Notes: a model not told the origin generated them from the letters alone. A stretch of DNA of 64,000 nt from an uncultured Acidobacteriota bacterium (GCA_963718645.1 OY970373.1:2855900-2919899), one strand, 5' to 3'. Counted from the first letter of the stretch, positions 1 through 15,313 are shown. Numbers and translations: made by a program.

Positions 1-1903
1 GCAGACCTCACAAGCCATTGTTCTCATTGATAACGCCGAATCTCTTGACAAGGAATGGTTGTCCCGCTTCCTTGATAACTGGCTCTCGGGGATCTCTACA
101 GCTCAGCTCATCGTCACTTCGACGCTCTCTCTGAGATTAAGCCATCCAGGTTATCGAATATATCCACTCGGCGGTCTCTTACCTGCCAAAGTGGATGCAA
201 TTTTCTCTTTCCTTGGCTCTGAACTACAGGACCGCTTTAGTTCGGTAGAACTCCTGGCCGCAGCTAAGCAACTTGGCTATCTGCCACAAAGGCTTCTCTA
301 CATGCGTTGGCTGAATCCGGAAGGCCAGCAACAACTGGCTGAAGTCGCAACTGAACTCGCCGCCAATACAGACTCAGTGTCTGTCGCCAGCATTCGGAAA
401 AGGAGTGACGGATTTGTTGGCCATTATCTCGCGTTGGGTCATGTAAGGACCCTTCAATTTGACGAAGAGCTGTTAGCCGCGCTTTGGGATAGCTTAGGTG
501 GTGGTTCAGCTGCGCCATATGTAGCCATTCGCGATCGTCTGCTGAGGGAAGGCCTCCTAGTAAAGACATCGGAAAGCGCCAACGTAGGGAGCCTCCGCAT
601 TAACCCCGGAGTGCATTTACAGCTCGAAAAACTATTGGCAAGTAGCGTGGGCGTATCTCATCTACCGCATATAGATTATTTTTTGTCGGGTTATTTTAGA
701 CAGCGTTTCGAGAAATCTTCAATGCCTGACCTCCAAGACTTGGGGCATTACATATACCACTCTGCTCGCTGCGGTAATCTGCCGAACGCTGCGGAATATG
801 TCCTATCTGATAGGCGCCTTGAAACCCTGCGTGGGCAAGGTCTGACTTTGGCTTTGCGCCGAGTTCTGATAATTCTCGATGAGGAGCTAGATACAGTTCG
901 GTTGAAGACTTCTCGACCGGCGGAATGGAGGGATGAGGCGCTTTTGCAGGTGCGGTGTCGCACTCTTCTTGAGCTTGCTAGATGCCAATGCGAACTGAGC
1001 GAATATGTTGAGTGCCTAAACTCTCTCTCCGCTCTAGACGAGGTAAAGCAGACTCTTGCTCCAAACCTTTTGGAGGCGGAGCTGAGACGGAAGATGAATA
1101 TCCTTCGTGGGATCAGTTTCGGTTGCTTGGGGAGATTGGAGGAATGCATTCGCTCTTATGTTGCGGTGGTATCTAATGCACTCGACAGTAAAGGGCTTGA
1201 TCCTGGTTCCATTGAAGCTCTAGGATACGCTGCAATGGTGACAGGATATATTGACATGGAGAGAGCGCTAAGCTTGGGAGAATGTAGCCTAACCTTAGCA
1301 GAGAGTTTGGGAGATGAATTGATACTTACAAAGAATCGATGCAGCTTGGGCCAAACAGCTTTATATTCTGGGCGCTTTGGCCAGGCTGTTGAGCTTCTCG
1401 GAGCGGCTGAAGAGTGGTGCCGGGGCAGTGAAGAACGCAAGGGCGACCGACGAGAGTTGGGCCGCGTGCTCATTCCCGCAGCAATGGTTATGATGATGGT
1501 AATCAGGGATGGCGAGAAGTCTTTATCTCTTGCGAAAGAGGCTCTAGCTATTAATCTTTCGGTTGGCGATAGACGGAGGTACGCGAGGGCTAAGATCGTA
1601 GAAGCGTTAGCTACGATTTGTGCAGGCATGCGGGAGAAGGGGGCGTCTTTGCTAGATGAGGGCCTTGACCATTTGTACACAAGCCGTGATTGGCTTAACC
1701 TAGTGCTTGGCGCTTTAACCTCAGGCTACCTTCAGGGGGCTAGTGGCCTTGATGAGATTGTAAGGTTGGCGACAGTTAGCTCTGATGATCAGCTCTGGGC
1801 AAAATTTCTCAAGGAAGCTCGCGGAGACCACGAAATGGTACCTACATTGGGGAGGTTTTGGGAACGACATTATCTCCCCTTGCTGCAAGGCGCAGGAATT
1901 TAG
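1..1903 (+). CDS. STAND (NB-ARC-like) NTPase, 5'-truncated at the window edge, with a long helical/TPR-like C-terminal region
   Basis: The reading frame is open from nt 2 and continues through the ORF-track start at 59 (TTG). The N-terminal fragment reads ..IVLIDNAESLDKEW (Walker-B-like hhhhDD) followed by AQLIVTSTL (sensor-I-like hhhTTR), then ~550 aa of helical repeats. GC is lower than in the rest of the window. Confidence 0.55.
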   Translation, partial: QTSQAIVLIDNAESLDKEWLSRFLDNWLSGISTAQLIVTSTLSLRLSHPGYRIYPLGGLLPAKVDAIFSFLGSELQDRFSSVELLAAAKQLGYLPQRLLYMRWLNPEGQQQLAEVATELAANTDSVSVASIRKRSDGFVGHYLALGHVRTLQFDEELLAALWDSLGGGSAAPYVAIRDRLLREGLLVKTSESANVGSLRINPGVHLQLEKLLASSVGVSHLPHIDYFLSGYFRQRFEKSSMPDLQDLGHYIYHSARCGNLPNAAEYVLSDRRLETLRGQGLTLALRRVLIILDEELDTVRLKTSRPAEWRDEALLQVRCRTLLELARCQCELSEYVECLNSLSALDEVKQTLAPNLLEAELRRKMNILRGISFGCLGRLEECIRSYVAVVSNALDSKGLDPGSIEALGYAAMVTGYIDMERALSLGECSLTLAESLGDELILTKNRCSLGQTALYSGRFGQAVELLGAAEEWCRGSEERKGDRRELGRVLIPAAMVMMMVIRDGEKSLSLAKEALAINLSVGDRRRYARAKIVEALATICAGMREKGASLLDEGLDHLYTSRDWLNLVLGALTSGYLQGASGLDEIVRLATVSSDDQLWAKFLKEARGDHEMVPTLGRFWERHYLPLLQGAGI

Positions 1904-1999
1904 GGGGGACAATGGACCCAAGCGACGAGGAGTTTTGTTTGAGGAAATGGCGCGCTAAACCGGCTCGGGTCGACGGTCTTCTATAATGGAAATGACATT

Positions 2000-2677
2000 A
2001 TGGACACGGTTAAGCTTATCAAAACGTACATAGAACAGATCAAGCGGCCCAATATTCTCTTGGGAATAGACGGAGGCCAGGGATCCGGAAAAACAAGCTT
2101 TATTGGTAAACTGAGTACAGCATTGGATCGCTACAATGTTGTAAACATTGAGACTGATGACTATTTACTTGATCGAGATCAACGCGAGGACTTGCCAGTC
2201 TCGTTCTTTGAATCCTTCGAGAACCTATCAGATCTATATGATTTCGAGAGGTTCTCCGAAACGGTCAGGACTTTGGCTGTATCGGTGCAAACTGAGATTA
2301 TCTTGGGAGGGCTCTACGATAGGAAGACCGGAAGACGCGATCGTTCAGAAAAAATAAAACTGAGTGATAAGAACATTGTTATTGTGGGTGGGCCATATTT
2401 GCTGTCGGCGCTATTGCCGAGATTCGATCTGACGATTTTCCTTGATGTCGATGAGGCGGTCCGCTTGGACAACACGCTGCGGCGCACACTAGATAACAAT
2501 AATAGATCGATAGAATCGCAGAACGCGGTCTTCGGCAAATTCGAGAAGTTCTTCTATCCTTACTATTCCGACAAACTGGCTGAGTTCGACGTAATCATTG
2601 ATAACAATGATTGGTCGAATAATTATATAACAAGAGATCGTGTCGGAGTACATAGCCCCGCGGTCGGCAACCCTTAA
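2000..2677 (+). CDS. P-loop NTPase, uridine kinase/phosphoribulokinase-like nucleoside/nucleotide kinase fold
   Basis: Walker A GIDGGQGSGKTSF lies near the N-terminus; the protein is 225 aa and sits in the low-GC block. Confidence 0.6.
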   Translation: MDTVKLIKTYIEQIKRPNILLGIDGGQGSGKTSFIGKLSTALDRYNVVNIETDDYLLDRDQREDLPVSFFESFENLSDLYDFERFSETVRTLAVSVQTEIILGGLYDRKTGRRDRSEKIKLSDKNIVIVGGPYLLSALLPRFDLTIFLDVDEAVRLDNTLRRTLDNNNRSIESQNAVFGKFEKFFYPYYSDKLAEFDVIIDNNDWSNNYITRDRVGVHSPAVGNP

Positions 2678-2717
2678 GGCCACGTTTAAAATAACTACAA
2701 TTTACAATATTTAATCT

Positions 2718-3401
2718 ATGACACTTAAGGACAAGGCTGTGGTAATCACCGGAAGTAGCAAGGGGCTTGGAAAAGCTCTTGCTGCAGCGTTTATCCATGA
2801 GGGCTCAAGGGTAGTTATCAGTGCACGATCGATAAGTGAATTGGATAATGCGGCCCGCGAAACTGGAGCAACTCCTTATCTTGCGGATGTGACTAAAGAA
2901 AGGGAGGTCGTGAAGCTCGCCCAATTCAGCAAGAGGCAATTTGGGACGATTGACGTCTGGATCAACAATGCGGGTACCACCATTTCCCATTCATCAATTG
3001 AAGAAATTGACGATAGGGCGGCTCATCAGGTCATGGAGGTGAACTTCTTCGGCACGTTCTATGGTTCGCGAGCGGCGATCTCAATAATGAAAGGGCAAAA
3101 GTATGGCGTCATTGTGAATATTGTCTCGATGAGCGCCTTTGTTGGCCGTCCTCAGTCATTGGTGTACTCCGCGAGCAAATGGGCGGCCCGTGGATTCACG
3201 AAAGGTCTTCGTATGGCTCAAGAGCCAAACCATATCTCTGTGATTGCAGTGCATCCAGGAGGCATCAAGACTACGATGTTTGGCGATCAACTTCCAGTGG
3301 GTTACGAAGACTGGATGGAGCCGTCTTTTGTTGCGAAAAGCATAGTACGAAACTTGAGGCGCAGCTCACCAAAAGAAGAGTTGGTAGTGCGCAAAAAGTA
3401 A
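2718..3401 (+). CDS. short-chain dehydrogenase/reductase (SDR)
   Basis: Has the VITGSSKGLGKA (TGxxxGxG) motif, NNAG, and the YSASK catalytic YxxxK. Confidence 0.85.
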   Translation: MTLKDKAVVITGSSKGLGKALAAAFIHEGSRVVISARSISELDNAARETGATPYLADVTKEREVVKLAQFSKRQFGTIDVWINNAGTTISHSSIEEIDDRAAHQVMEVNFFGTFYGSRAAISIMKGQKYGVIVNIVSMSAFVGRPQSLVYSASKWAARGFTKGLRMAQEPNHISVIAVHPGGIKTTMFGDQLPVGYEDWMEPSFVAKSIVRNLRRSSPKEELVVRKK

Positions 3402-3533
3402 TTGCGACCTACTCACCTCGATCAGGTAAAGCTAGATCACCTTAAGGAGGTTCTAGTTGCCCAGTCGCTGGAGCGATTCTCGGAATATGCAGAAGGACAC
3501 GACTTTTGAGATATGGCATAGGAGAGTCAGTTC

Positions 3534-4103
3534 ATGACAAATTTCTTGGATAAGCTAACTGCGATTAGTACCATGTTGACGGCTATTGCTGCGGCGGCGG
3601 CGGCGTTCATCGCTTTCTTCCAGACACGGGCAGCATCAAAAATCGCAAAATCAACTGCTGATCAAGCGATGGCACTCGCCAAGTTTAACGCTGAATTGCA
3701 ATCCGTCCAGCATTTTGACACTCAATGGCAGTCGGACCGTATGATCAAAGTACGCCGCGGCGCAGCAGCGGCGCTGCTGCGCGAAGAGCCGAGCGTAGAT
3801 GTCGATGAGGTCCTTGATTTCTTCGAAGAGATCGCACGCCTCGTAAAGCGTGGTATCTTGCCGATAGAGACGGCCTGGGATGCCTATTATTGGCCGATTG
3901 CGAATTATTGGGCGAAGTCCGCGGCCTACGCGCAGGAGGCTCGCGACGATGAGGGTGCGTCGTGGACAAACTTGCCCGAGGTATTAACGCGGCTACAACA
4001 AGTAGAATCAAAAGAAAGCGACCGGCCGATCAATGCAGTTTCTCCGCGCGAGGCTCAGACCAGGGTATTCTTAGAAGGTGAAACCAAGCTGGAATTGCTA
4101 TGA
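3534..4103 (+). CDS. membrane-anchored hypothetical protein (N-terminal TM helix)
   Basis: A GGAGAG RBS lies 8 nt upstream. The N-terminal hydrophobic helix is LTAISTMLTAIAAAAAAFIAFF and the rest is soluble. It is the last gene of the low-GC block. Confidence 0.55.
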   Translation: MTNFLDKLTAISTMLTAIAAAAAAFIAFFQTRAASKIAKSTADQAMALAKFNAELQSVQHFDTQWQSDRMIKVRRGAAAALLREEPSVDVDEVLDFFEEIARLVKRGILPIETAWDAYYWPIANYWAKSAAYAQEARDDEGASWTNLPEVLTRLQQVESKESDRPINAVSPREAQTRVFLEGETKLELL

Positions 4104-4310: not shown

Positions 4311-5909
4311 TCACGCCGCCTTGCCCTCCTCGGTCGCTTCTCGTCCCCCGGGACTACCCTCCATCAATTGCCTAATGTTTCCAAGCTTCTCTCTTGACTC
4401 CGCCTCAGCCAAAAAGGTTCGAACTTCGTGGAGAAAGGTCCGCAGCTCGATACTGGTCGAAGTTGTTGACCATCGTCTGAACGGTTTTGCCGCGTCAATC
4501 CTGAGTTCCCGGTCTTGGAGCCGAGGGTTCGAACCGGCGATTTGAAGGATGAGCCGTTTTTCATCCGGAGTGCCGGTTCGGAACCGCGAAGCCGCTTCTT
4601 CATTGAACGCAACGAGGAGACGGGCGGGTTCGAACCGGTCCTCATCTTGGCCGAGCTTCGCAATCTCCTGAGCCATCCGGAGACGGTCTCGGGTGATCTC
4701 CTGGCGCTCCTGTAGGAACTCGGCGTCGTCCAAGATGTCCCGGATGCGGAGCTTCTTCAGGTTCGCGAGCTGGCGGTCGAGCGCCGCGGCCTGGTTTTCG
4801 AGCGCCCGCCGTTGCTTTCCGAGGATCTCCTCCTCGTCGGCGGTGAGCCGGCTAAGGCGTTCCATCTCGAAGCCGTGGAACTTTTCGGGGATCGAGATCT
4901 CTTCGAGGAACTGTGCCGCCTGTCCGTCCAGCCGCTCAGCGGAGATGGAGCGTTGGGCGCAACGGTAGTCGAGGCGACGCCAGGAGCAGTGGTAGTAGGT
5001 GTAGTGGGAGCCGAAGCGGTTTGTCTTGTGCTCAGCCGTGACGGCGAAGCCGCATTCCCCGCAGCGGATCATGCCGGTATAGGGGAAGGCATAGGTCTTC
5101 CGCCGCGGTCGCCCCGGGCGGCCGAGAAGCTCCTGCACCCGCTCGAATTCGGAGAGGGTGACCATGGCCTCGTGCTTCCCCGGGTAGATCTTTCCTTCCC
5201 ACTCGATCACCCCCGCATAGAAGGGGCTCTTGAAGATCTTGTAGATGGCGCTCTTCGTGAAGGGAGCGCCGCCGATCCTCTTATGGGTCCGCGTGACGAG
5301 TCCCCATTCCTTTCCCGCCATCTCCCAGATGCGACGGGGAGTCGCCTCCTCGGAGAGGAGGAGCCGCCACATCTTCTGGATCACGTGGAACCGCTCGGGG
5401 TCGGGGATGATCTGCCCACTCTCGCGGTCGTTCAGATACCCCGCCGGCGCGAAGTTCGGGAGCCAGCCCTTTTCCACCTTGGCCCGCATGCCGCGGCGGA
5501 CGTTCTCAGAGAGGGCGTCCACGTAGTACTTGGAGTACCCGAAGATAATTGAGAGCATGAACTTGCCCTGCGAGTTGTTCTCGAAGGTGTGGTTCGCGAA
5601 GCGGAGGTCTTTGAGCGTGCCTTTGTCGAGAAGGTAGATGATCCGGCCGCCGTCGATCGAGTTCCTCGCGAGCCGGTCCGGGTGCCAGGCGATGATTCCT
5701 TCCGCCTTGCCCTTCTCCACCTCGTGGAGCATCTCCTCGAAGACGGGACGCCCCGGAGCCTTCGCGCTCTGCGCTTCCTCGAAGGTCCGGACGATCGTGA
5801 GGCCCGAGCCTTCGGCAAGGCGCTCCATCTCAACTCGCTGCGAATCGATGGAGAGGATCTGCCGATCTTCCGATTCGCTTGACTTGCGGCAGTAGAGAAA
5901 ATATTTCAT
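4311..5909 (-). CDS. large serine recombinase (resolvase/invertase N-domain + recombinase domain + zinc ribbon)
   Basis: The N-terminus YCRKSSESEDRQILSIDSQ carries the catalytic Ser motif and the protein is 532 aa. A Cys-rich segment RCGECGF....CS is typical of the zinc-ribbon region of large serine recombinases. Confidence 0.85.
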   Translation of the reverse strand: MKYFLYCRKSSESEDRQILSIDSQRVEMERLAEGSGLTIVRTFEEAQSAKAPGRPVFEEMLHEVEKGKAEGIIAWHPDRLARNSIDGGRIIYLLDKGTLKDLRFANHTFENNSQGKFMLSIIFGYSKYYVDALSENVRRGMRAKVEKGWLPNFAPAGYLNDRESGQIIPDPERFHVIQKMWRLLLSEEATPRRIWEMAGKEWGLVTRTHKRIGGAPFTKSAIYKIFKSPFYAGVIEWEGKIYPGKHEAMVTLSEFERVQELLGRPGRPRRKTYAFPYTGMIRCGECGFAVTAEHKTNRFGSHYTYYHCSWRRLDYRCAQRSISAERLDGQAAQFLEEISIPEKFHGFEMERLSRLTADEEEILGKQRRALENQAAALDRQLANLKKLRIRDILDDAEFLQERQEITRDRLRMAQEIAKLGQDEDRFEPARLLVAFNEEAASRFRTGTPDEKRLILQIAGSNPRLQDRELRIDAAKPFRRWSTTSTSIELRTFLHEVRTFLAEAESREKLGNIRQLMEGSPGGREATEEGKAA

Positions 5910-6097
5910 GGATGCTGTGTGTCTTCTCCCCTCGAAGGCGACGGGTCCTGATTTCTCGCAGGCTGACGCGAGAGCATCAGATAGAGCGCGTCAAGGCGGG
6001 CGATATGTTCGCGCGCCTCGTCCACGGTGATCTTTTCTTCAAACTCTTCGCGCCAGATCTCCTGGAACCGGCGGATGTCGTCCTCCGTGATGCGCAC
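5906..6097 (-). CDS. small helical protein translationally coupled to the serine recombinase (possible directionality/accessory factor)
   Basis: Its stop overlaps the recombinase ATG (ATGA overlap at 5906-5909). It is 63 aa and acidic/helical. Confidence 0.4.
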   Translation of the reverse strand: MRITEDDIRRFQEIWREEFEEKITVDEAREHIARLDALYLMLSRQPARNQDPSPSRGEDTQHP

Positions 6098-6373
6098 GAG
6101 GACGACGATACTCCGCGATCAGCGGGCGAGGTAGGCGGGAAATGCAGGCGCCCTTTGAGGTGAGAAGTGCAGTTGGGTGAGTGATTCGACCTTGTCTATC
6201 GATGGTACGAAGAAGAGACGGATTCGTCAAAAGGTGATTGGATGGTGTCGATGATCTTCGCCTTTCCTCTCTCGGAAACTTCTTGATTTTCCAATCTCGT
6301 TCTTACCTTGGAAACCCAAAGCAGCGCGCTCGTAAAGGGTGTGTAGATTTCGTCCTTGGTTTGTTTTCTTCAG

Positions 6374-6389: not shown

Positions 6390-6508
6390 CATCATGAAGA
6401 ACCTCATAACAATCAGGATCAAGGCCGAGCTTCCCGACACGCGTGCCGGCCCGACGACGACTCTTTCTATATCATTCACACTCCGTCGCCCAATTTACCC
6501 TCTTCACT

Positions 6509-7000
6509 ATGGAAAACACCCCAACCCGCATCTTCGCTATTGACCCCACGACCAAAGGCTTCGGCTATGCCGTCTTCGAGCTGCCGTTCCGCCTCGTCGA
6601 ATGGGGGATCGCCCGTGTCGCCGGCGAGAAACATGCGGGCACTGTCCTCCGGTTCGAGCAGCTTCTCGCTCGCTTCCGTCCGGACGCGGTGGTCTTGGAG
6701 GATGCCGAGGCCCCCGGTTCGCGCAGGCAACCCCGCGTCCGGCGCCTGATCGAGGCCCTCACGAGACTAGCCCGCGAGCGCGGCATCGCCGTGTACACGA
6801 TCGCAAGGAGCGCCGTCCTAAAGTGCTTCTCTTCCACCGACAACGTCGCAACGAAGCAGTCCATAGCGAGGAATCTCGCCGGACGTTTCCCGGAGCTTGC
6901 GGAGCAGTTGCCGCCGCCCCGCAAGCTTTGGCAAACCGAGCATGAACGCATGTCGGTCTTCGACGCCCTGGCCCTCGCCGTGACCCACGCGAACTCGTAA
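6509..7000 (+). CDS. RuvC-family Holliday-junction resolvase (crossover junction endodeoxyribonuclease-like)
   Basis: RIFAIDPTTKGFGYAVFE resembles the RuvC N-terminus IxGIDPGxxxxGYGV. VVLEDAE supplies the second acidic residue. The C-terminal FDALALAVTHA matches the RuvC DAxDALAxAxxH motif. Start chosen at the internal ATG (MENTPTRIF); the ORF-track start at 6443 is a GTG. Confidence 0.7.
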   Translation: MENTPTRIFAIDPTTKGFGYAVFELPFRLVEWGIARVAGEKHAGTVLRFEQLLARFRPDAVVLEDAEAPGSRRQPRVRRLIEALTRLARERGIAVYTIARSAVLKCFSSTDNVATKQSIARNLAGRFPELAEQLPPPRKLWQTEHERMSVFDALALAVTHANS

Positions 7001-7116
7001 TCCGGCCCGACATGTTCTCTTCGCGCAAGGCGGCCCCCGAGGCCGCCTTTTGCGTTCCTGCCCCGGCCGCTACCCTGATTCGCAGAACTCCGACAATTTT
7101 AAGAAAGGAGGATGAG

Positions 7117-8052
7117 ATGCCCGAGGGCTTCATCTCGTTTGCGGAGGTAAAGCGTGCAGTCACGATGGAAGCGGTTCTCACCCGCTACGGACTCCTGGAG
7201 GGATTGACCCGCAAGGGCCAGAACCTCGCGGGTCCCTGTCCCTTCTGCAAAGGCAAGTCACAGCGCCAGTTCCAGGCGAATCTCTCGAAGAACGCCTGGT
7301 ACTGCTTCGGATGCAAGGAGGGCGGGAACGTCCTCGACTTCGTCGCGAAGCGCGAGAAGGCGAGCGTGCGTGCCGCGGCCCTGAAGCTCGATTCCTGGTT
7401 CGAGCTCGGACTCGGGGCAGAGTCTCCATGTCCCGAGCAACCCCGGACTCCAACCCCGGCGCCACCGGCCGCGACGGAGGTAGCGCCCACAGAGAACCCG
7501 CCCCTGGCCTTCACCTTGAAGACCCTGGACCCCCGCCATGCGAGTCTCGAGGCCCTGGGACTCGGGGAGGCGACCATCGACCGCTTCGGCGCGGGGTACT
7601 GCGCGAAGGGACTCTTGAAGGGGCGGATGGCGATCCCGATCCACAATCGCTACGGGGAACTCCTCGCCTACGCGGGTCTCGCCCTCGGCGAGGAAGCTCC
7701 CCGCTACCTCTTCCCGCCGAAGTTCCATCCGGCGCTCGAAGTCTTCAACCTGCATCGCCTGATCGAGGTCCCTGAGGAGAGGGGGCCGCTCTACCTTGCC
7801 CCCGATGTCCTCGGAGTCCTCCGGCTCGCCGAGGCCGGGTACGTCTCGGTCCTCGGCCTCTTCGACGGCTCGCTCTCCGAGGCGCAGGAGGAGGCCATCC
7901 GGGGCGCCCTCTCGCTCTACGAGGGATTCCAACTCGTAGGCGAGGGCTTCGCCGACCGCACGATTGCCCGGCTCGCGCGGTATGCGGGTGTCTCCTGGGT
8001 CGCAGAGCTGTCCCAGAACCCCCTTACCGAAGCAGGGAGGGAGTATCAATGA
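7117..8052 (+). CDS. CHC2 zinc-finger DNA primase-like protein
   Basis: AGGAGG RBS precedes the ATG at 7117. CPFCKGKSQRQFQAN...WYCFGCKEGGNVLDFV matches the zf-CHC2 motif of DnaG/phage primases. Confidence 0.7.
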   Translation: MPEGFISFAEVKRAVTMEAVLTRYGLLEGLTRKGQNLAGPCPFCKGKSQRQFQANLSKNAWYCFGCKEGGNVLDFVAKREKASVRAAALKLDSWFELGLGAESPCPEQPRTPTPAPPAATEVAPTENPPLAFTLKTLDPRHASLEALGLGEATIDRFGAGYCAKGLLKGRMAIPIHNRYGELLAYAGLALGEEAPRYLFPPKFHPALEVFNLHRLIEVPEERGPLYLAPDVLGVLRLAEAGYVSVLGLFDGSLSEAQEEAIRGALSLYEGFQLVGEGFADRTIARLARYAGVSWVAELSQNPLTEAGREYQ

Positions 8053-9246: not shown

Positions 9247-9672
9247 TTACCCCACTGACGAAATGATGGAGACTCCCAGATCGTGCGGATAGAGGCACAC
9301 GCTCTTCGTCTCCCTTTCCCACTCCCTTTGAGGAATGAAGATCCGCCCGCCGTGCCGTCGCACGAGGCATGCCAAGGCGCGGTTCAGGCGCTCCGGGTTT
9401 ACCAGATGATCTGCCTCGACGTGTCCCCAAAGTATGAGGTAGGACGCTTCGGAATTCGGATCGTCATCCCAATCCCGGAAGTACGCTCGCACCAGTTCCG
9501 GGCCGCCCTGCCGCGCGATGCGGAAGGGCGAGTTGCGGATGAGGTCGAGGTCGAGACCGAGTTCGCCGGTGACGATGATGGACACGCGATCGATACCTTT
9601 CACCTGCGGATTGAATGCTCTGACGTGGAGAACCTTGGCGCTATTTTCATGCTTGGTTTTCAGGAGGTTCAT
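9247..9672 (-). CDS. hypothetical protein (141 aa) overlapping the upstream XRE regulator gene
   Basis: It overlaps the XRE gene end by 26 nt, an operon-like arrangement. No family recognised. Confidence 0.4.
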   Translation of the reverse strand: MNLLKTKHENSAKVLHVRAFNPQVKGIDRVSIIVTGELGLDLDLIRNSPFRIARQGGPELVRAYFRDWDDDPNSEASYLILWGHVEADHLVNPERLNRALACLVRRHGGRIFIPQREWERETKSVCLYPHDLGVSIISSVG

Positions 9673-10117
9673 GATGGCCTTGATCCCGATTCATCTTCCC
9701 GTCCGCATTGCCGCCGAGCTCCGACCTTCGCCCCAAGACAACCTCCTCGAAAACCCTCCGGTGAAGGTCCAGGACCTGGATCAAGAGCCGAGAGAATGCC
9801 TCTTCAGTTTCAGCCCGCAGCAGGGAACCACCCTCTTTAGGGGGGAGCATCCACGCGCCGGGACGATCGGACGAATTGAGTGCGGAGGCCCGCTCATCGA
9901 CCAAGCTCAGCGTGTAGAAGAAGTCGCAAACGCCGATGTCCAGGGCGCCGAGCACCTTCTCAAGCGAGTCCAGTCGGGGGAGCTCCTTTCCGTTCTCATA
10001 TTTCGAGAGCTGGCTTTTCCCGATCCTTGCGTCGCGGGCAATGCAAGCCTGGCTCTTGCCCCGAAGCTGTCGAATGAGCGTGAGAGTGTTCCCGACGTTA
10101 TGGAACAAAGATGCCAC
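9647..10117 (-). CDS. XRE-family HTH transcriptional regulator
   Basis: LRQLRGKSQACIARDARIGKSQLSKYENGKELPRLDSLEKVLGAL is a Cro/C1-type HTH. Confidence 0.7.
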   Translation of the reverse strand: MASLFHNVGNTLTLIRQLRGKSQACIARDARIGKSQLSKYENGKELPRLDSLEKVLGALDIGVCDFFYTLSLVDERASALNSSDRPGAWMLPPKEGGSLLRAETEEAFSRLLIQVLDLHRRVFEEVVLGRRSELGGNADGKMNRDQGHHEPPENQA

Positions 10118-10414: not shown

Positions 10415-10636
10415 TCAGAGAGGCGTGCAGGTCCCGAGGGCGCTCGGGCTGCGGAAGGCAAGAGCGCCGTCAAACTCCCAAGCCTGCCGCGTCACCGCCA
10501 CGCACTCCGGGCAGCCGCTCAGGAGATGGCGCACGACCAACTGACTCTCGGCGCGGGAGACCTCGCCGCGTAGGAAGCGCAGGAGAAGCTCCGTCTGGGG
10601 GTGTTCGCAAGGTCGCGTCATGGTCCTTGGAGGCAT
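10415..10636 (-). CDS. small zf-HC2 (anti-sigma-factor-type zinc finger) protein without a TM segment
   Basis: CEHPQTELLLRFLRGEVSRAESQLVVRHLLSGCPEC matches the HxxxCxxC zf-HC2 pattern. It is divergent from HTH-TPR regulator 1. The start may instead be the MTRPCEH Met at 10621. Confidence 0.45.
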   Translation of the reverse strand: MPPRTMTRPCEHPQTELLLRFLRGEVSRAESQLVVRHLLSGCPECVAVTRQAWEFDGALAFRSPSALGTCTPL

Positions 10637-10838
10637 CCGGCTCGGTTCGGCGTCTCCAACGGAGAGGGTAGGGTCATCGCCGGGCGGCAGTTACCCGAAA
10701 GCGGTAAGCGGTCCTCCAAGGAGACCGGAGTATGGAATTTTCTTCTCAGTTCCGCCAACAAGCGGTTGGGAATTCACGTGCGCTTGTCACGCTAAGGCAT
10801 ACTTGAGGTACTTCTATAGTTGAGCCCGGAGAAGGTGC

Positions 10839-12308
10839 ATGCCGCAACCCAACCCCACGCCACTTAGCCTGAGCCTGGCCTTCCTGCGCCTCATCCAGGG
10901 CTGGAGCCAGGCGAAACTGGCTAAGGCCACCGGGATCTCGGTGAAGATGCTCTCGCGGTATGAGACGGGGAGGACCACTCTCTCCCGAGAGCTGCTGGAA
11001 AGGATCGTTGTCGCGATGGGCTTCGGGCCTGAGGCGATCGATTGGAGCCTCTTCTATCTCCGACAGGTCCGCCAGGAGATGGATGCCGCCGCCTCGCCCG
11101 CGGGGCCAACGGCAGCGGAGCGCCGGCTCATCGAACGGGCCACGCTCGCGAAGGCCTTGTCCGGGGCGGATGAAACGCGCTCGGAGCTCACCCGCTCCCT
11201 CCGGAACCTCCGCGCGGAGCAAGACCGCCGGGAGGCACAGCGCCTCTGGGAGTACCTGAAGGGCCGCCGGGCCAGAGACCGGCGGGTGCTTGTCGAGGGC
11301 GGGCGGGAGTACAAGAGTTGGGCTCTCTGCGAGCGGCTCTGCTTTGCCAGCTTGACGGCTGCGGCGGACGACTCCGTCGAAGCAGTGGGATTGGCGGAGT
11401 TAGCCGTGAGGGTTGCCGAGCTGGTGGGGAGGGAGGAGCCCGAGCACATGGGCCTCCAGGGCTATGCCTTCGCTTTTCTCGGGAACGCTCGCCGAGTCCA
11501 GGGAAATCACCCAAGCGCCGAGGAGGCATTCGCCCAATTTGAGCAGTTGTGGAGTGGGGGAAGTCCCGCAGGCCACTGTCTCCTCGATGGAGCGCGCCCC
11601 CTCGACCTCAAGGCGTCGCTACGGAGGCATCAGGGAAGCTTCGACGAAGCCTTGGATCTGCACGCCCGGGCACTCGCAATGGCGAACCCGGCTGACCACG
11701 GTTCGTTCCTACTCAACAAGGCAAAAACTCTGGAGGAAATGGCCCGCTACGAAGAAGCGATCGAGACGCTGAAACAAGCTGAACCCTTATTAGGTGGCGG
11801 ACCGCGCGAGTCACGGCATTGGTTCGCGCTCCGGTGCAACCTTACGGTCAATCTTTGCCACCTGGGGCGCTTTGATGAGGCGGAAGCATTCTTGCCGGAA
11901 GTGCGGCAACTGGTAGACCGGTCTGGCAATCGACTCGACAAATTGCGGGTGCGTTGGCTGGAGGGACGAGTCGCAGCCGGCATGGGACGGTGGGACGAGG
12001 CTCTCGCCGCTCTGTCCCAGGTGCGGGCGGAGTTTACCTCGCGCGGGATCGCTTTCGACACCGCCCTGGTTAACCTGGAGCTTGCGGTAGTCCACCTGGA
12101 GTTGGGGCGCATTGGAGAGGTAAAGACGCTCGCGCGGCAGGTGCTGCCGATCTTCAAGGCGCAAGGAGGGCACCGCGAGGCCTTTGCGGCGCTCTTGCTT
12201 TTTCGCGAGGCCGCCGAAAGCGAGGCGGTCACGGTGGAGTTTACCCAGCGTCTTATCGAATACCTCCACCGCGCCCGCTACGACCCGAACCTCCGCTTCG
12301 AAGCCTGA
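10839..12308 (+). CDS. HTH(XRE)-TPR transcriptional regulator, paralog 1 (RRNPP/AimR-like architecture)
   Basis: GGAGAAGG RBS. The N-terminus LRLIQGWSQAKLAKATGISVKMLSRYETGRTTLSRELLERIVVAMG is an XRE HTH. The C-terminal ~400 aa is helical-repeat and very similar to paralog 2, e.g. RRVLVEGGREYKSWALCERLCFASL...NARRVQGNHPSAE. Confidence 0.75.
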   Translation: MPQPNPTPLSLSLAFLRLIQGWSQAKLAKATGISVKMLSRYETGRTTLSRELLERIVVAMGFGPEAIDWSLFYLRQVRQEMDAAASPAGPTAAERRLIERATLAKALSGADETRSELTRSLRNLRAEQDRREAQRLWEYLKGRRARDRRVLVEGGREYKSWALCERLCFASLTAAADDSVEAVGLAELAVRVAELVGREEPEHMGLQGYAFAFLGNARRVQGNHPSAEEAFAQFEQLWSGGSPAGHCLLDGARPLDLKASLRRHQGSFDEALDLHARALAMANPADHGSFLLNKAKTLEEMARYEEAIETLKQAEPLLGGGPRESRHWFALRCNLTVNLCHLGRFDEAEAFLPEVRQLVDRSGNRLDKLRVRWLEGRVAAGMGRWDEALAALSQVRAEFTSRGIAFDTALVNLELAVVHLELGRIGEVKTLARQVLPIFKAQGGHREAFAALLLFREAAESEAVTVEFTQRLIEYLHRARYDPNLRFEA

Positions 12309-12434
12309 GCATCAGAGCCGCCCGTCAATAGAGCCTCGCTTGCCGCTACGCCTCACGATCCCACCAGGACCAGGCTCGAAACGTCGCGGAGATCATCGCC
12401 TGTCCCTTGGCTTGCAGAGAGGCCAGCCCTGGCT

Positions 12435-12740
12435 TCAGTGCCCGCCCGTACAGCGGCCGTTCGGATCGATGCTGCAACCAGTGTCCGCTTGGGCAGGAGC
12501 GTTTGAACCAGCGCCGGCTTGGCAAGAGGCGCCGTGCGGATCGATCGAACAGCCGGTCTTAAGGAAAACACGGCCGAGCGTCTCCCAGAGGCGGACCAGG
12601 ACATCCGGCTGCATCGCAACAATGCGCGGTTCTCGGCCAAGCTCGATAGCGCGCGGCTGCGCCGCCGCCCAGGGCGACCCGATGGCCATCACTCCAAGAA
12701 CTAGGACGAGGATCACCCGATGAGAGCGGGAAGAGAACAT
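12435..12740 (-). CDS. small secreted cysteine-repeat peptide (102 aa precursor with signal peptide)
   Basis: The internal ATG at 12740 has a GGAG 7 nt upstream. MFSSRSHRVILVLVLGVMAIGSPWAAAQP looks like a Sec signal peptide. The mature part carries two GCSIDP(H/N)G..C repeats, encoded by repeated cGGATCGAT at the nucleotide level. It is divergent from regulator 2 and convergent with regulator 1. Confidence 0.5.
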   Translation of the reverse strand: MFSSRSHRVILVLVLGVMAIGSPWAAAQPRAIELGREPRIVAMQPDVLVRLWETLGRVFLKTGCSIDPHGASCQAGAGSNAPAQADTGCSIDPNGRCTGGH

Positions 12741-12864
12741 AATGAGTCTCCTTTTCACGGGGGCCACACGGCGCTGCCACCGTGGCCGCCGGCGCCTCTC
12801 CAACCAGTATGGTGCCTTGCGGGGAAGATTAGTCTACCCAAGAGGTCTTCAGGGAGGACCGCTG

Positions 12865-14337
12865 ATGACGAGGCAACGGGAGCTAACAGCCAGCGGCGTA
12901 GTCGTAGGCCTTCTCCGCTTGCTCCGTGGCTGGAACCAAACGGAGTTGGCGAATGCCTCCGGAATCGACAAGTCCCTGATCTCCCGCTATGAGCGAGGAA
13001 CCAAGGTGCCGAGCCGTCGAACCTTGGAACGCCTCGCCGCCGCCGCAGGCATCCCCTTTTCTTGGGTAGAGCGGCAACTCCCGGAGATCCGTGCAGCTCT
13101 CGCCGCGATCAAGGAGGGAGCACCCGCCGTGGCCCAAAGCTCCGCCGGCACGACCGATGTGGAACAAGCGGTTCTCGCACAACTCGGTTTCCAACTGGAA
13201 GGGCAGTCTCCTCCCACACCGAAGCAGGCTCGAAGAGAGGCTCAGGGGCTTTGGGACTACTTTAAAAACCGATCAGCTCGGGACCAGCGAGTGCTTGTCG
13301 AGGGCGCACGGGAATATCAGAGTTGGGCCTTTTGCGAGCGTCTCTGCTTCGCCAGTTTAGCGACTGCGGCGAACGACCCCCTGGAAGCGGTGGAGTTGGC
13401 GGAACTGGCCGTCAGGGTTGCCGAGCTGGTGGGGGGAGAGGTCCCCGAGCGCCAACGTATTCAGGGCTATGCCTGCGCTTTTCTCGGGAACGCCCGCCGG
13501 GTTCAGGGGAATCACCCAAGCGCCGAGGCAGCCTTTGGCCTTTCCGATCGGCTCTGGATCGCGAGCGCTTCCGGGAGCGCGGGTCCTCTCGATGAAGCAC
13601 GTCCGCTCGACCTCAAGGCCTCTCTCCGGCGGCACCAGGACCGATGCGCAGAAGCCCTTGAGCTGCACGACCGGGCGCTGAGATTGGCGAACCCGGCTGA
13701 CCACGGCTCGTTCCTGATCAACAAGGCAAAGACCCTGGAAGAAATGGCCCGGTTCGCCGAGGCTGTCGAAGCGCTTACCCATGCCGCGCCCCTGGTCAAA
13801 GCAGGGCGCGAACCGCGGCTCCTGTTCGCACTTCACTGCAACCTGACGGTCAATTTATGCCATTTGGACCGGTATGCCGAGGCCGAAGCCTTGTTGCCGG
13901 AGGTGCAGCGGCTCGTCGGAGGACTCGGAACGCGACTGGACACGGTACGGGTTCGCTGGCTTGAAGGCAAGGTGGCGGCCGGCTTGGGCAGACGCGAGGA
14001 AGGCATCGCCGCTTTGAAGGAGGTGCAGCAGGAATTCAAGGACCGCGGAATCGCCTTCGACACTGCCCTGGTCTCGCTAGAGCTTGCGGTGGTCCACCTT
14101 GAAGAGGGGCACACCTCAGAAGTCAAGACACTTGCGCAGCAGATGACGATCATCTTCAAGGCACAGGGAGTCCATCGGGAGGTTCTGGCGGCGCTCCGGC
14201 TTTTCTGGGACGCCGCTAAACGGGAAACGGCGACCGTGGACTTGGCGCGGCAGCTCGTGAGGTTTCTTCATCGCGCTCGGCATGACCCAGACCTGAAGTT
14301 TGAGCCTGAGAGCCAGCCGCTCCAAGGCAGGCCATAG
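12865..14337 (+). CDS. HTH(XRE)-TPR transcriptional regulator, paralog 2
   Basis: GGGAGG RBS precedes the ATG at 12865; the ORF-track start at 12742 is an upstream extension. The HTH is LLRLLRGWNQTELANASGIDKSLISRYERGTKVPSRRTLERLAAAAG. The C-terminal region is collinear and highly similar to paralog 1; 490 aa. Confidence 0.75.
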   Translation: MTRQRELTASGVVVGLLRLLRGWNQTELANASGIDKSLISRYERGTKVPSRRTLERLAAAAGIPFSWVERQLPEIRAALAAIKEGAPAVAQSSAGTTDVEQAVLAQLGFQLEGQSPPTPKQARREAQGLWDYFKNRSARDQRVLVEGAREYQSWAFCERLCFASLATAANDPLEAVELAELAVRVAELVGGEVPERQRIQGYACAFLGNARRVQGNHPSAEAAFGLSDRLWIASASGSAGPLDEARPLDLKASLRRHQDRCAEALELHDRALRLANPADHGSFLINKAKTLEEMARFAEAVEALTHAAPLVKAGREPRLLFALHCNLTVNLCHLDRYAEAEALLPEVQRLVGGLGTRLDTVRVRWLEGKVAAGLGRREEGIAALKEVQQEFKDRGIAFDTALVSLELAVVHLEEGHTSEVKTLAQQMTIIFKAQGVHREVLAALRLFWDAAKRETATVDLARQLVRFLHRARHDPDLKFEPESQPLQGRP

Positions 14338-14361
14338 GGCATCGCGGAGACCGGCTTCCCG

Positions 14362-14860: not shown

Positions 14861-15313
14861 TTACACGCCTTCCCGTGTAATTGCTACAGCCGCCATGAAC
14901 TCTTCGAGCGTTTGCCGCACCCTGTCGTGCCCGTCTCCCACCCGGCCCGCCTCCCATGCCCGCACGGTCGAAGGGTCGAGACCCAGGTGAAGGGCAAGGG
15001 CCTTTTGGGAGAGCCCCATGACCTTGCGCGCCGCCCGGAGGCGCTCGGACAAGGACCGCGGCGCGGGGTTGGGGTCGTGGCCCAGGAAGCGGATGACCCG
15101 GGAGTAGGGCGCCTCGCCGACCTTGGCCCGGCCGTTTTCCCAATTCTTCACGGTGGCCAGGGAGACCCCGAGCGCCCGCGCCGTTTCGCGCAGGGTGAGC
15201 CCGAGTTCCGAGCGCCGCAGCCGCAGGTGCTCCCCCAAAGGCACCTCTGGCACGGGGGGTGCAGAGTCCAGGGCCGGTTTAGACGTAGAGAGGATAAGAT
15301 CGCAAAATGGCAA
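14861..15313 (-). CDS. tandem double-HTH (XRE-type) DNA-binding protein
   Basis: Two HTH_XRE-like segments: LRETARALGVSLATVKNWENGR and LSQKALALHLGLDPSTVRAWEAGR. Confidence 0.6.
   Translation of the reverse strand: MPFCDLILSTSKPALDSAPPVPEVPLGEHLRLRRSELGLTLRETARALGVSLATVKNWENGRAKVGEAPYSRVIRFLGHDPNPAPRSLSERLRAARKVMGLSQKALALHLGLDPSTVRAWEAGRVGDGHDRVRQTLEEFMAAVAITREGV

Follow-up and report, generated by a model that had tools for sequence, protein, structure and literature searches.

A group of four genes lies between positions 10,415 and 14,337 of a 64,000-nucleotide (nt) stretch of DNA from an uncultured Acidobacteriota bacterium (GCA_963718645.1 OY970373.1:2855900-2919899), which is called the window here and is meant at its full length. 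Two of the genes, reg1 and reg2, encode regulators that combine an N-terminal XRE helix-turn-helix (HTH) domain with a long C-terminal domain of tetratricopeptide repeats (TPRs), and they represent two classes, termed R1 and R2. Between them lies ORF B, which encodes a putative exported peptide precursor and is arranged tail-to-tail with reg1 and head-to-head with reg2. The fourth gene, ORF A, encodes a small protein with likeness to ZAS domains and is divergent from reg1. The starts of ORF A and reg1 are 202 nt apart and those of ORF B and reg2 124 nt apart, and good Shine-Dalgarno (SD) sequences precede reg1, reg2 and ORF B (Table 1). Comparison with related loci shows that the window holds one copy, in its fullest four-gene form (R1, B, R2 and A), of a cassette that is specific to Thermoanaerobaculia.

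A sequence-only reading of the window had described two regulators of ~490 amino acids (aa) with XRE HTH and TPR domains, each facing a small divergent ORF, in a genome of acidobacterial type. ORF calls and Pfam matches recover both regulators, and the named relatives all belong to Thermoanaerobaculia or Acidobacteriota. Both small ORFs also prove to be genuine: homologues occur at a fixed place and strand, and the ratio of nonsynonymous to synonymous substitution (dN/dS) is below 1 for each (0.38-0.76 for ORF A and 0.35-0.59 for ORF B). The length of ORF B was given as 102 aa and is corrected in Table 1.

Table 1. Cassette features, numbered from the first nucleotide of the window
Feature	Position	Strand	Description
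ORF A	10415..10636	(-)	small protein, predicted cytoplasmic, ZAS-like
A/reg1 control region	10637..10838		between ORF A and reg1
Box-like element ATGGAATTTTCTTCT	10732-10746		upstream of reg1
Motif TGTCACGC	10785-10792		upstream of reg1
Element GGCATACTTG	10796-10805		upstream of reg1
reg1 SD GGAGAAGG	within 10637..10838
reg1 (R1-type regulator)	10839..12308	(+)	489 aa; XRE HTH ~8-59, long helix 92-141, ~8-9 TPR 145-481
Convergent spacer	12309..12434		126 nt, reg1 stop to ORF B stop
ORF B	12435..12740	(-)	putative pre-pro-peptide, 101 aa
ORF B upstream region	12741..12864	(-)	common to reg2
ORF B SD AAAAGGAG	12748-12755	(-)	strong; 7 nt before ATG
B leader	~12756-12805	(-)	GC-rich
-10-like element GGCACCATACT	12806-12816	(-)
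Palindrome-like box GTAGACTAATCTTC	12824-12837		consensus GTGGA-TTTT-TCCAC
reg2 SD AGGGAGGA	~12851-12858	(+)
reg2 (R2-type regulator)	12865..14337	(+)	full-length, 490 aa; second-class XRE HTH + TPR

A conserved pairing of regulator and peptide gene

The regulators belong to a very large family without annotation. A word-indexed search returned 635 matches of ~45-77% identity, and an exhaustive profile search found ~2,755 regulator clusters at 50% identity (E<=1e-30). Scanning one genome for each species yielded 264 relatives, of which the best 79 loci were analysed. All 79 are from metagenome-assembled genomes (MAGs) of Thermoanaerobaculia, and 3-7 loci come from single genomes. The linkage counts for ORF A and ORF B are based on hidden Markov model (HMM) searches of 83 related loci.

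ORF B is found convergent with and downstream of a full-length regulator in 74 of the 83 loci, and it adjoins a regulator in 77. Five loci are without B, two of which are cut by contig ends. The motif C..DP.G occurs just downstream of 62 of 93 regulator copies in antisense frames, and downstream of none of the 93 in sense frames. The pairing of a regulator with a small signal-peptide-bearing ORF is therefore conserved in relatives. Clustering of the ORFs beyond B showed that an R2-class XRE-HTH gene is divergent from B in 67 of 69 loci, which bears out the divergent layout proposed for ORF B and reg2. As a rule for the family, however, a small ORF opposite each regulator holds only for B and the reg2-type gene, because the main partner of the full-length regulator is the convergent B. 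The stops of regulator and B are mostly separated by ~40-105 nt (range 4-591). No canonical terminator was found in the reg1-B spacer by a consensus scan; sigma-70 and terminator scans were uninformative.

The B precursors are 84-138 aa long and consist of a signal region, a variable pro-region, a helix of pattern LW..L...W.K that is conserved directly before the first loop, and 2-4 repeats. A basic N-region (K/R), a hydrophobic core and an AxA-like site are present in 68 of 69 precursors. In the window, the signal peptide MFSSRSHRVILVLVLGVMAIGSPWAAA is followed by QPR, and the amphipathic helix is PDVLVRLWETLGRVFLKT. The Cys loops of this precursor, of pattern [KD]xGCx[ILV]DPxGxC, number two and read GCSIDPHGASC and GCSIDPNGRC, where a related locus, L003, has three loops. 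The consensus of 169 repeats in 70 precursors is [KD][NAET]GC[SGT][ILAV]DP[NDHS]GRC. Of 65 precursors that contain Cys, 61 have an even number of these residues, as would fit a single disulfide in each loop. Variable loop positions agree in 41-54% of comparisons within a precursor, versus 19-30% between precursors. A low-confidence AlphaFold2 model of ORF B (predicted local distance difference test, pLDDT, 64) has helices for the signal peptide and the amphipathic segment only and leaves the loops unstructured.

Profile searching was needed to collect most of the B family: a word-indexed search with the single sequence found six relatives, whereas profiles found 161 homologues, of which all the named ones are called "hypothetical protein." No family match was obtained for B in Pfam, NCBIfam or PDB. 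The linkage, the export signal, the repeats and the dN/dS values together suggest that B is a real and fast-evolving pre-pro-peptide with a Sec-type signal, and that it is exported.

Two variations of the B gene were observed. The repeats of four loci (L015, L049, L037 and L040, with B genes at ~5470-6120) are without Cys and read NGGSxDPxG or NGSxV[DE]PxG, which implies that the invariant core of B is G-x3-[DE]-P-x-G and not the disulfide. At L008:5576-7119, three tandem B genes follow one regulator, an arrangement that recalls Rap systems with several propeptide genes.

Two regulator classes, their control regions and ORF A

The two window regulators are 58% identical over 482 residues, and their sequences show neither a signal peptide nor a transmembrane segment. 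Pfam places HTH_3/HTH_31 at ~16-67 in both (HTH_3 E-values of 1e-10 for reg1 and 5e-13 for reg2) and TPR-type matches, namely TPR_12, TPR_19 and TPR_MalT, C-terminally. The sequence-only reading had likened the proteins to the RRNPP, AimR or Rgg type. Sequence comparison does not bear this out: no profile similarity to Rap, Rgg, NprR, PlcR, PrgX, AimR or ComR was detected in Pfam, NCBIfam or PDB. Specifically, Pfam and NCBIfam scans (E<=0.1) matched generic HTH and TPR models only; phmmer against PDB (E<=1) found consensus TPRs and HTH proteins of the HipB type, and no chain of an RRNPP protein; PADLOC and PHROGs gave only generic HTH matches; and no match was obtained to the AimR profile, the PHROG matches being at the HTH level only.

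An AlphaFold2 model of reg1 (pLDDT 87.5) consists of the HTH, the long helix and ~8-9 helix pairs over the residues listed in Table 1. The best fold match of this model is to LGN-type TPR superhelices, and the best bacterial structural matches are NprR and Rap peptide complexes. A Foldseek search gave a similar picture, in which generic TPR proteins rank first. RRNPP receptors thus appear to be the best bacterial matches of the predicted fold, yet the TPR fold does not discriminate. The A helices of TPRs line the groove of the superhelix, and the invariant polar residues of the regulator family (N216, R219, R262, Q265, N334, N338, D367, R370 and D407) are all in predicted A helices. This placement would fit a conserved groove that meets the conserved loop core of B.

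Two further features of the regulators were noted. All regulators have WALCERLC in their first TPR helix (window 11320-11345, reg1 residues 161-168), in which W161, A162 and C168 are invariant; the resulting conserved C-x3-C pair is of possible interest given the zinc-finger-like ORF A. Some database relatives are over-long, either ~1,100 aa or about twice the normal length (P0243-P0245 and P0248) or ~620-650 aa with 140-170 extra N-terminal residues (P0255, P0275, P0276 and others). They match the regulator profile in two stretches and may be fused R2-R1 or R1-R1 genes, or read-through in gene calling.

The N-terminal 95 residues divide the regulators into two classes, and the tree splits into 69 R1 sequences on one side and 8 R1 sequences with all 66 R2 sequences on the other. 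In the window, reg1 bears the R1 signature and reg2 the R2 signature. The first census of regulators demanded C-terminal coverage and so missed truncated R2 genes, which were recovered by the clustering of ORFs beyond B. R2 proteins have three length classes: ~130-150 aa (HTH and linker), ~260-290 aa (with ~2.5 additional TPRs) and ~480-500 aa (full). The full form is found in 13 loci, the window among them, and R2 is usually truncated. Some of the short forms carry frameshifts in MAGs; others terminate at positions that are conserved and recur in independent clades.

The TPR domains of the two classes have a different history from their N-termini. Those of reg1 and reg2 in the window are 67% identical. 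In the 13 loci where both regulators are full-length, TPR identity averages 72% within a locus, against ~50% across loci, and reaches 98% in L029, 95% in L038, 93% in L022, 92% in L058 and 91% in L004, while the N-termini of R1 and R2 within a locus are only ~32% identical. Recurrent tandem duplication, as suggested by a tree of full-length sequences, was rejected because analysis by domain gives two N-terminal classes and homogenised TPRs. A better reading of the pattern is that the sensor domain has been homogenised repeatedly between regulators with differing DNA-binding modules. Distinct N-termini combined with a locus-specific, homogenised TPR domain argue for one input with two outputs. 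The earlier suggestion that the duplication provides two specificities or cross-talk is correspondingly disfavoured, as R1 and R2 differ in their DNA-binding N-termini and have a common type of TPR domain within each locus.

The control region of B is conserved as well. Nearly all loci retain a layout of GGTGGATTTTTCCAC, ~14 nt, GGCACCATA, a leader and GAAAGGAG, the last of which sits 6-9 nt before the ATG of B. The leader of ~70 nt has the consensus GGAGAGGCGCC-CGCGGCC-ATGGA-GGCCGCG-..-CGCCTCTCC-GAAAGGAG and folds as nested stems, of which the inner hairpin GCGGCC-ATGGA-GGCCGC is retained. Substitutions in this hairpin include G-U pairs and a few compensatory changes, and wobble pairs outnumber A-C-type mismatches ~4:1 in the sense of B. 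The flanks GGAGAGGCGCC and GGCGCCTCTCC are complementary above shuffled controls (mean duplex z of -1.5), and the mean z for the minimum free energy of the whole leader is -1.7. RNAalifold on a MAFFT alignment gives a 4-bp inner stem only, and the outer stems come from folding statistics of individual sequences. No match for the leader was found in Rfam. The stretch at 12756-12816 of the window (minus strand), with its counterparts in L001-L082, may represent a new cis-regulatory RNA, or the palindrome may be the operator of an overlapping R2 promoter. In many loci, a 5' CUCCC is also present that could, if transcribed, pair with the SD. An upstream ATG in the leader loop was considered as the true start of B and was rejected, since it is missing from the window and from several loci, and no SD accompanies it.

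A matrix made from the box upstream of B also scores high upstream of R1 genes (mean best score 9.3, versus 6.5 for shuffled sequences; p = 8e-9). The matches cluster ~105-117 nt before the R1 ATG, and the one in the window is the box-like element of Table 1. Of 92 regulator upstream regions, 33 contain TGTCACG, which lies closer to R1 than the box does. The box upstream of both B and R1 indicates that the two transcription units likely have a common regulatory element. A scan of the entire 64-kb window with the matrix was not discriminating, with the reg1 site ranking 8th and an intragenic site 2nd, and no regulon could be read from it.

ORF A, which the source annotation does not call as a gene, has 73 aa when read from its first ATG and 68 aa when read from Met6 at 10621, which is probably the conserved start. 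An iterated HMM places homologues upstream of and divergent from R1 in 23 of the 83 loci (a strict regular expression found the closest loci only). The first census saw two full-length regulators in 13 loci, and 12 of these have ORF A. The window protein shows the motif HP..L.RF.RGE....E...VVRHLL.GC..C., and the family core is HP-x5-7-L-x-R-F-x-R-G-E-L-x3-E-x-R-x-V-V-R-H-L-L-x2-C-x2-C. Residues H7, H32, C37 and C40 are invariant or nearly so, with a spacing of H-x4-C-x2-C versus the H-x3-C-x2-C of ZAS domains. ORF A scores 13.6-14.1 bits against Pfam zf-HC2 (PF13490), below the gathering threshold of 22.2, and zf-HC2 is matched by 6 of 16 ORF A members at E<0.1 (best 0.0043). Profile comparisons give the anti-sigma factor DdvA (E of 0.004) and ChrR (E ~1) in PDB, and ChrR in NCBIfam (E of 1e-3). 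These scores are consistent with a likeness to anti-sigma zinc-binding domains, although a weak one. No sigma-70 family gene lies beside ORF A in the window or in L001-L003, where the neighbours are XRE and XRE-TPR genes.

By its sequence, ORF A is a cytoplasmic accessory protein and not a second peptide signal. The two regulator-peptide pairs that were proposed for the window thus become a cassette of one peptide gene and two regulators. An assignment of ORF A as an antagonist of R1 and R2, or as their redox or zinc input, would be speculation. A third XRE-HTH gene, a short one of 156 aa (9647-10117, minus strand), is found upstream of ORF A. Homologues of it occur on the corresponding side in L001, L003, L029, L038 and L061, each of whose cassettes has ORF A and a full-length R2, and it may be a fifth member of this variant of the cassette.

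A possible peptide-signalling circuit

The best-supported reading of these data, unproven and held only tentatively, is a self-regulated peptide-signalling cassette with RRNPP logic. According to this model, B would be exported, oxidised and probably cut into loop units. Its level would be read back in the cytoplasm by the TPR domain common to R1 and R2, and the peptide input would change the binding of R1 and R2 at the boxes upstream of B/R2 and A/R1, which would close a feedback loop. One signal would thereby have two DNA-binding outputs, as in Rgg2/Rgg3, and ORF A might act as an extra antagonist or redox input. Peptide signalling fits best with the near-obligate linkage of three genes over thousands of divergent copies, the export signal and repeats of B, the common sensor and the common boxes. 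Moreover, the many cassettes per genome and the ~2,755 regulator clusters resemble the expansions of Rap-Phr and Rgg-SHP systems. Fast evolution is also counted in its favour: relative to L003, the flanks are 88-89% identical and R1 77%, and a B repeat has been gained.

Several observations weigh against peptide signalling. In a diderm host such as this one, a peptide that is exported has to get across or around the outer membrane and then be re-imported. The cassette encodes no transporter, protease or maturase in the contexts of the window, L001-L003, L083 and L084, and Pfam, NCBIfam and PDB gave no RRNPP-specific profile or sequence match. A mirror-tree comparison of B with the regulators yielded r = 0.47 for the N-terminus and r = 0.39 for the TPR domain, and a partial Mantel test of the TPR domain given the N-terminus yielded 0.12; hence TPR-specific co-evolution was not seen. 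The loop core is nearly invariant across paralogues, which leaves few positions for specificity. Most R2 copies are without most or all of the TPR domain. Finally, the B precursors, at 84-138 aa, are longer than typical RRNPP propeptides.

Some of the same observations also speak for B as an output. R1 and R2 would then be local transcription factors that switch on a secreted effector, for instance a toxin constrained by disulfides, a peptide that binds metal or calcium, or a component of the surface or matrix, and the TPR domains would sense some other cytoplasmic ligand or a partner protein. Such a circuit needs no re-import across a diderm envelope, and the box upstream of B, together with the structured leader that would also gate it, suits an effector gene. 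The generic TPR fold, the lack of TPR-specific co-evolution with B and the many R2 copies without a sensor domain are likewise in keeping with it. However, an effector role leaves unexplained why each of many near-identical genes per genome has a dedicated regulator pair, and immunity, export and maturation genes are not linked to B in the loci examined. B was rejected as a cationic antimicrobial peptide on the ground of charge, its loops being neutral or anionic, and matches of B to bacteriocin or defensin models were not significant. In addition, homogenisation of the TPR domains within loci suggests a sensor tuned to something locus-specific. We consider an effector role, the main alternative, somewhat unlikely.

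A second way to avoid re-import is a partner switch coupled to secretion, in which the TPR domain binds the unexported B precursor, for example through its amphipathic helix, and export of B releases the regulator or makes it inactive. The TPR chaperone-regulator circuits of type III secretion and FlgM export follow this logic. The helix before the first loop is conserved, and the LGN-type superhelices, to which the fold is closest, have long peptides in extended or helical form as their ligands. However, the ordinary Sec-type signal on B should lead to quick export, the repeated Cys loops and even Cys count are left unexplained, and we know of no precedent for Sec substrates in this role. Such a switch is very improbable.

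Another possibility concerns the genomic setting of the window copy. A large serine recombinase (4311-5909; Resolvase, Recombinase and Zn_ribbon_recom domains; phrog_95 integrase), a RuvC-like protein (6443-7000) and a primase (7012-8052) are encoded upstream of the cassette, and the GC content is 60-64% over 4-14 kb versus 67-75% beyond. The genes directly after reg2 (Metallophos_2 and FadL/Toluene_X) are 88-89% identical to their counterparts in L003, whereas identity on the left is 54-77%, with 77% for reg1 and 54% for the upstream XRE gene. The drop falls within 24 nt (14338-14361), which makes this interval a candidate right-hand boundary of an island. It corresponds to the gap from the reg2 stop to the Metallophos_2 stop, and its counterpart in L003 is 7144-7162. 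In L001, the closest relative, mobile-element genes lie to either side (an MmeI-type methyltransferase, ParB and SSB).

With the cassette on the variable side of this boundary, and RRNPPA systems frequent on mobile elements (PMC9765709), the window copy could be an arbitrium-like switch of its integrative element, in which the peptide level sets excision, transfer or lysogeny. However, none of the mobile-element genes of the window recurs in the flanks of the other 79 loci, and for this reason an arbitrium-like role cannot describe the family. The contexts of L083 and L084 look chromosomal, several cassettes are present per genome, and the region examined yielded no genes for phage structural proteins or for conjugation. 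Even for the window copy, we regard such a role as quite improbable. The mobile-element setting described in the sequence-only reading accordingly stands for the window and does not extend to the family, most of whose cassettes are not beside such genes.

Two other observations concern the surroundings. Positions 1-4100 of the window have a GC content of 48-51%, far below the remainder, and encode a 614-aa ORF without a Pfam match, a P-loop kinase/zeta-toxin-like ORF, a short-chain dehydrogenase and a DUF4760 protein; this segment is probably a separate or nested acquisition beside the serine recombinase. Outside the cassette, a 150-aa protein of two tandem XRE HTH domains (14861-15313, minus strand) adjoins the conserved Metallophos_2 gene.

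Novelty and comparison with known systems

The sensing of signal peptides by cytoplasmic TPR receptors counts as a hallmark of Bacillota, and quorum sensing of Gram-negative bacteria is taught as based on small molecules. A full-text literature search produced no paper that links RRNPP systems to Acidobacteria or peptide sensing to Thermoanaerobaculia. The cassette families are also unannotated, and the expectation that a cognate system in Acidobacteria would be undescribed has held up. It is possible, although we hold this with more doubt than the signalling model itself, that the thousands of Thermoanaerobaculia cassettes are the first example of peptide quorum sensing through a cytoplasmic receptor in diderms, with a multi-copy, disulfide-cyclised nonapeptide pheromone, a sensor common to two regulators, and some copies on integrative elements.

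If this is true, a large receptor-propeptide family in Acidobacteria would break the divide between Bacillota and Gram-negative signalling. Acidobacteria are abundant in soil and poorly understood, and synthetic loop peptides, defined promoters and two regulators would offer a concrete handle on their cell-cell signalling. Even if B is an effector, three unannotated protein families, a conserved leader and promoter motif, and an unusual domain-specific homogenisation are new.

The cassette resembles RRNPP systems in architecture and probably in logic, and it is not RRNPP by sequence. In common with the RRNPP(A) systems (PlcR-PapR, NprR-NprX, Rgg-SHP, PrgX-cCF10/iCF10, Rap-Phr, ComR-XIP and AimR-AimP), it has a predicted cytoplasmic receptor with an N-terminal HTH, which is found in all RRNPP(A) subfamilies except Rap, and a C-terminal TPR superhelix. 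In both, a small neighbouring gene encodes a propeptide with a signal peptide, genomes carry many paralogous cassettes, of which some are on mobile elements, and the mature unit is repeated inside the propeptide. Such repetition of the mature peptide has been described for NprR, AimR, PlcR and Rap systems, and RRNPPA genes were detected in Firmicutes alone, almost all of them in Bacilli (PMC9765709). The present cassette differs in its diderm acidobacterial host, in a peptide gene convergent with the full-length receptor, in its Cys-bounded DPxG loops, probably closed by disulfides, where RRNPP signals are short, linear and unmodified, and in having a second regulator class and a ZAS-like partner. 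The arbitrium system AimR-AimP-AimX differs further, as it has a downstream aimP of ~40 aa and aimX, whereas the peptide gene described here is convergent and encodes 101 aa.

A parallel to two regulators with one signal is Rgg2/Rgg3-SHP2/SHP3 of Streptococcus pyogenes, in which paralogous HTH regulators reportedly respond to the same pheromone type and act at common promoters, and the peptide gene diverges from the regulator. Two paralogous HTH regulators and a peptide gene divergent from one of them are likewise found in the cassette. Unlike Rgg2/Rgg3, to which it is not homologous, the cassette has one peptide gene, two DNA-binding modules, a homogenised sensor and an R2 that is usually truncated. 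ORF A is comparable with ZAS/zf-HC2 proteins (RsrA, ChrR and DdvA) in its N-terminal His, the pattern ...L..F..GEL...E....HL..C..C and four candidate zinc ligands, and differs from them in its length of ~60-70 aa, its H-x4-C-x2-C spacing, its sub-threshold scores and the lack of an adjacent ECF sigma gene.

Opposed receptor and signal genes are familiar from prgQ/prgX of pCF10 and from convergent luxR/luxI pairs (esaR/esaI), in which the short distance allows transcriptional interference and tight coupling. By gene order, the regulator and B are similarly opposed over a short distance, although the protein families and the signals are others. What distinguishes the cassette from all of these systems is its combination of a convergent peptide gene, a multi-copy Cys-loop precursor, two regulator classes with a homogenised sensor, a ZAS-like accessory protein and a structured leader.

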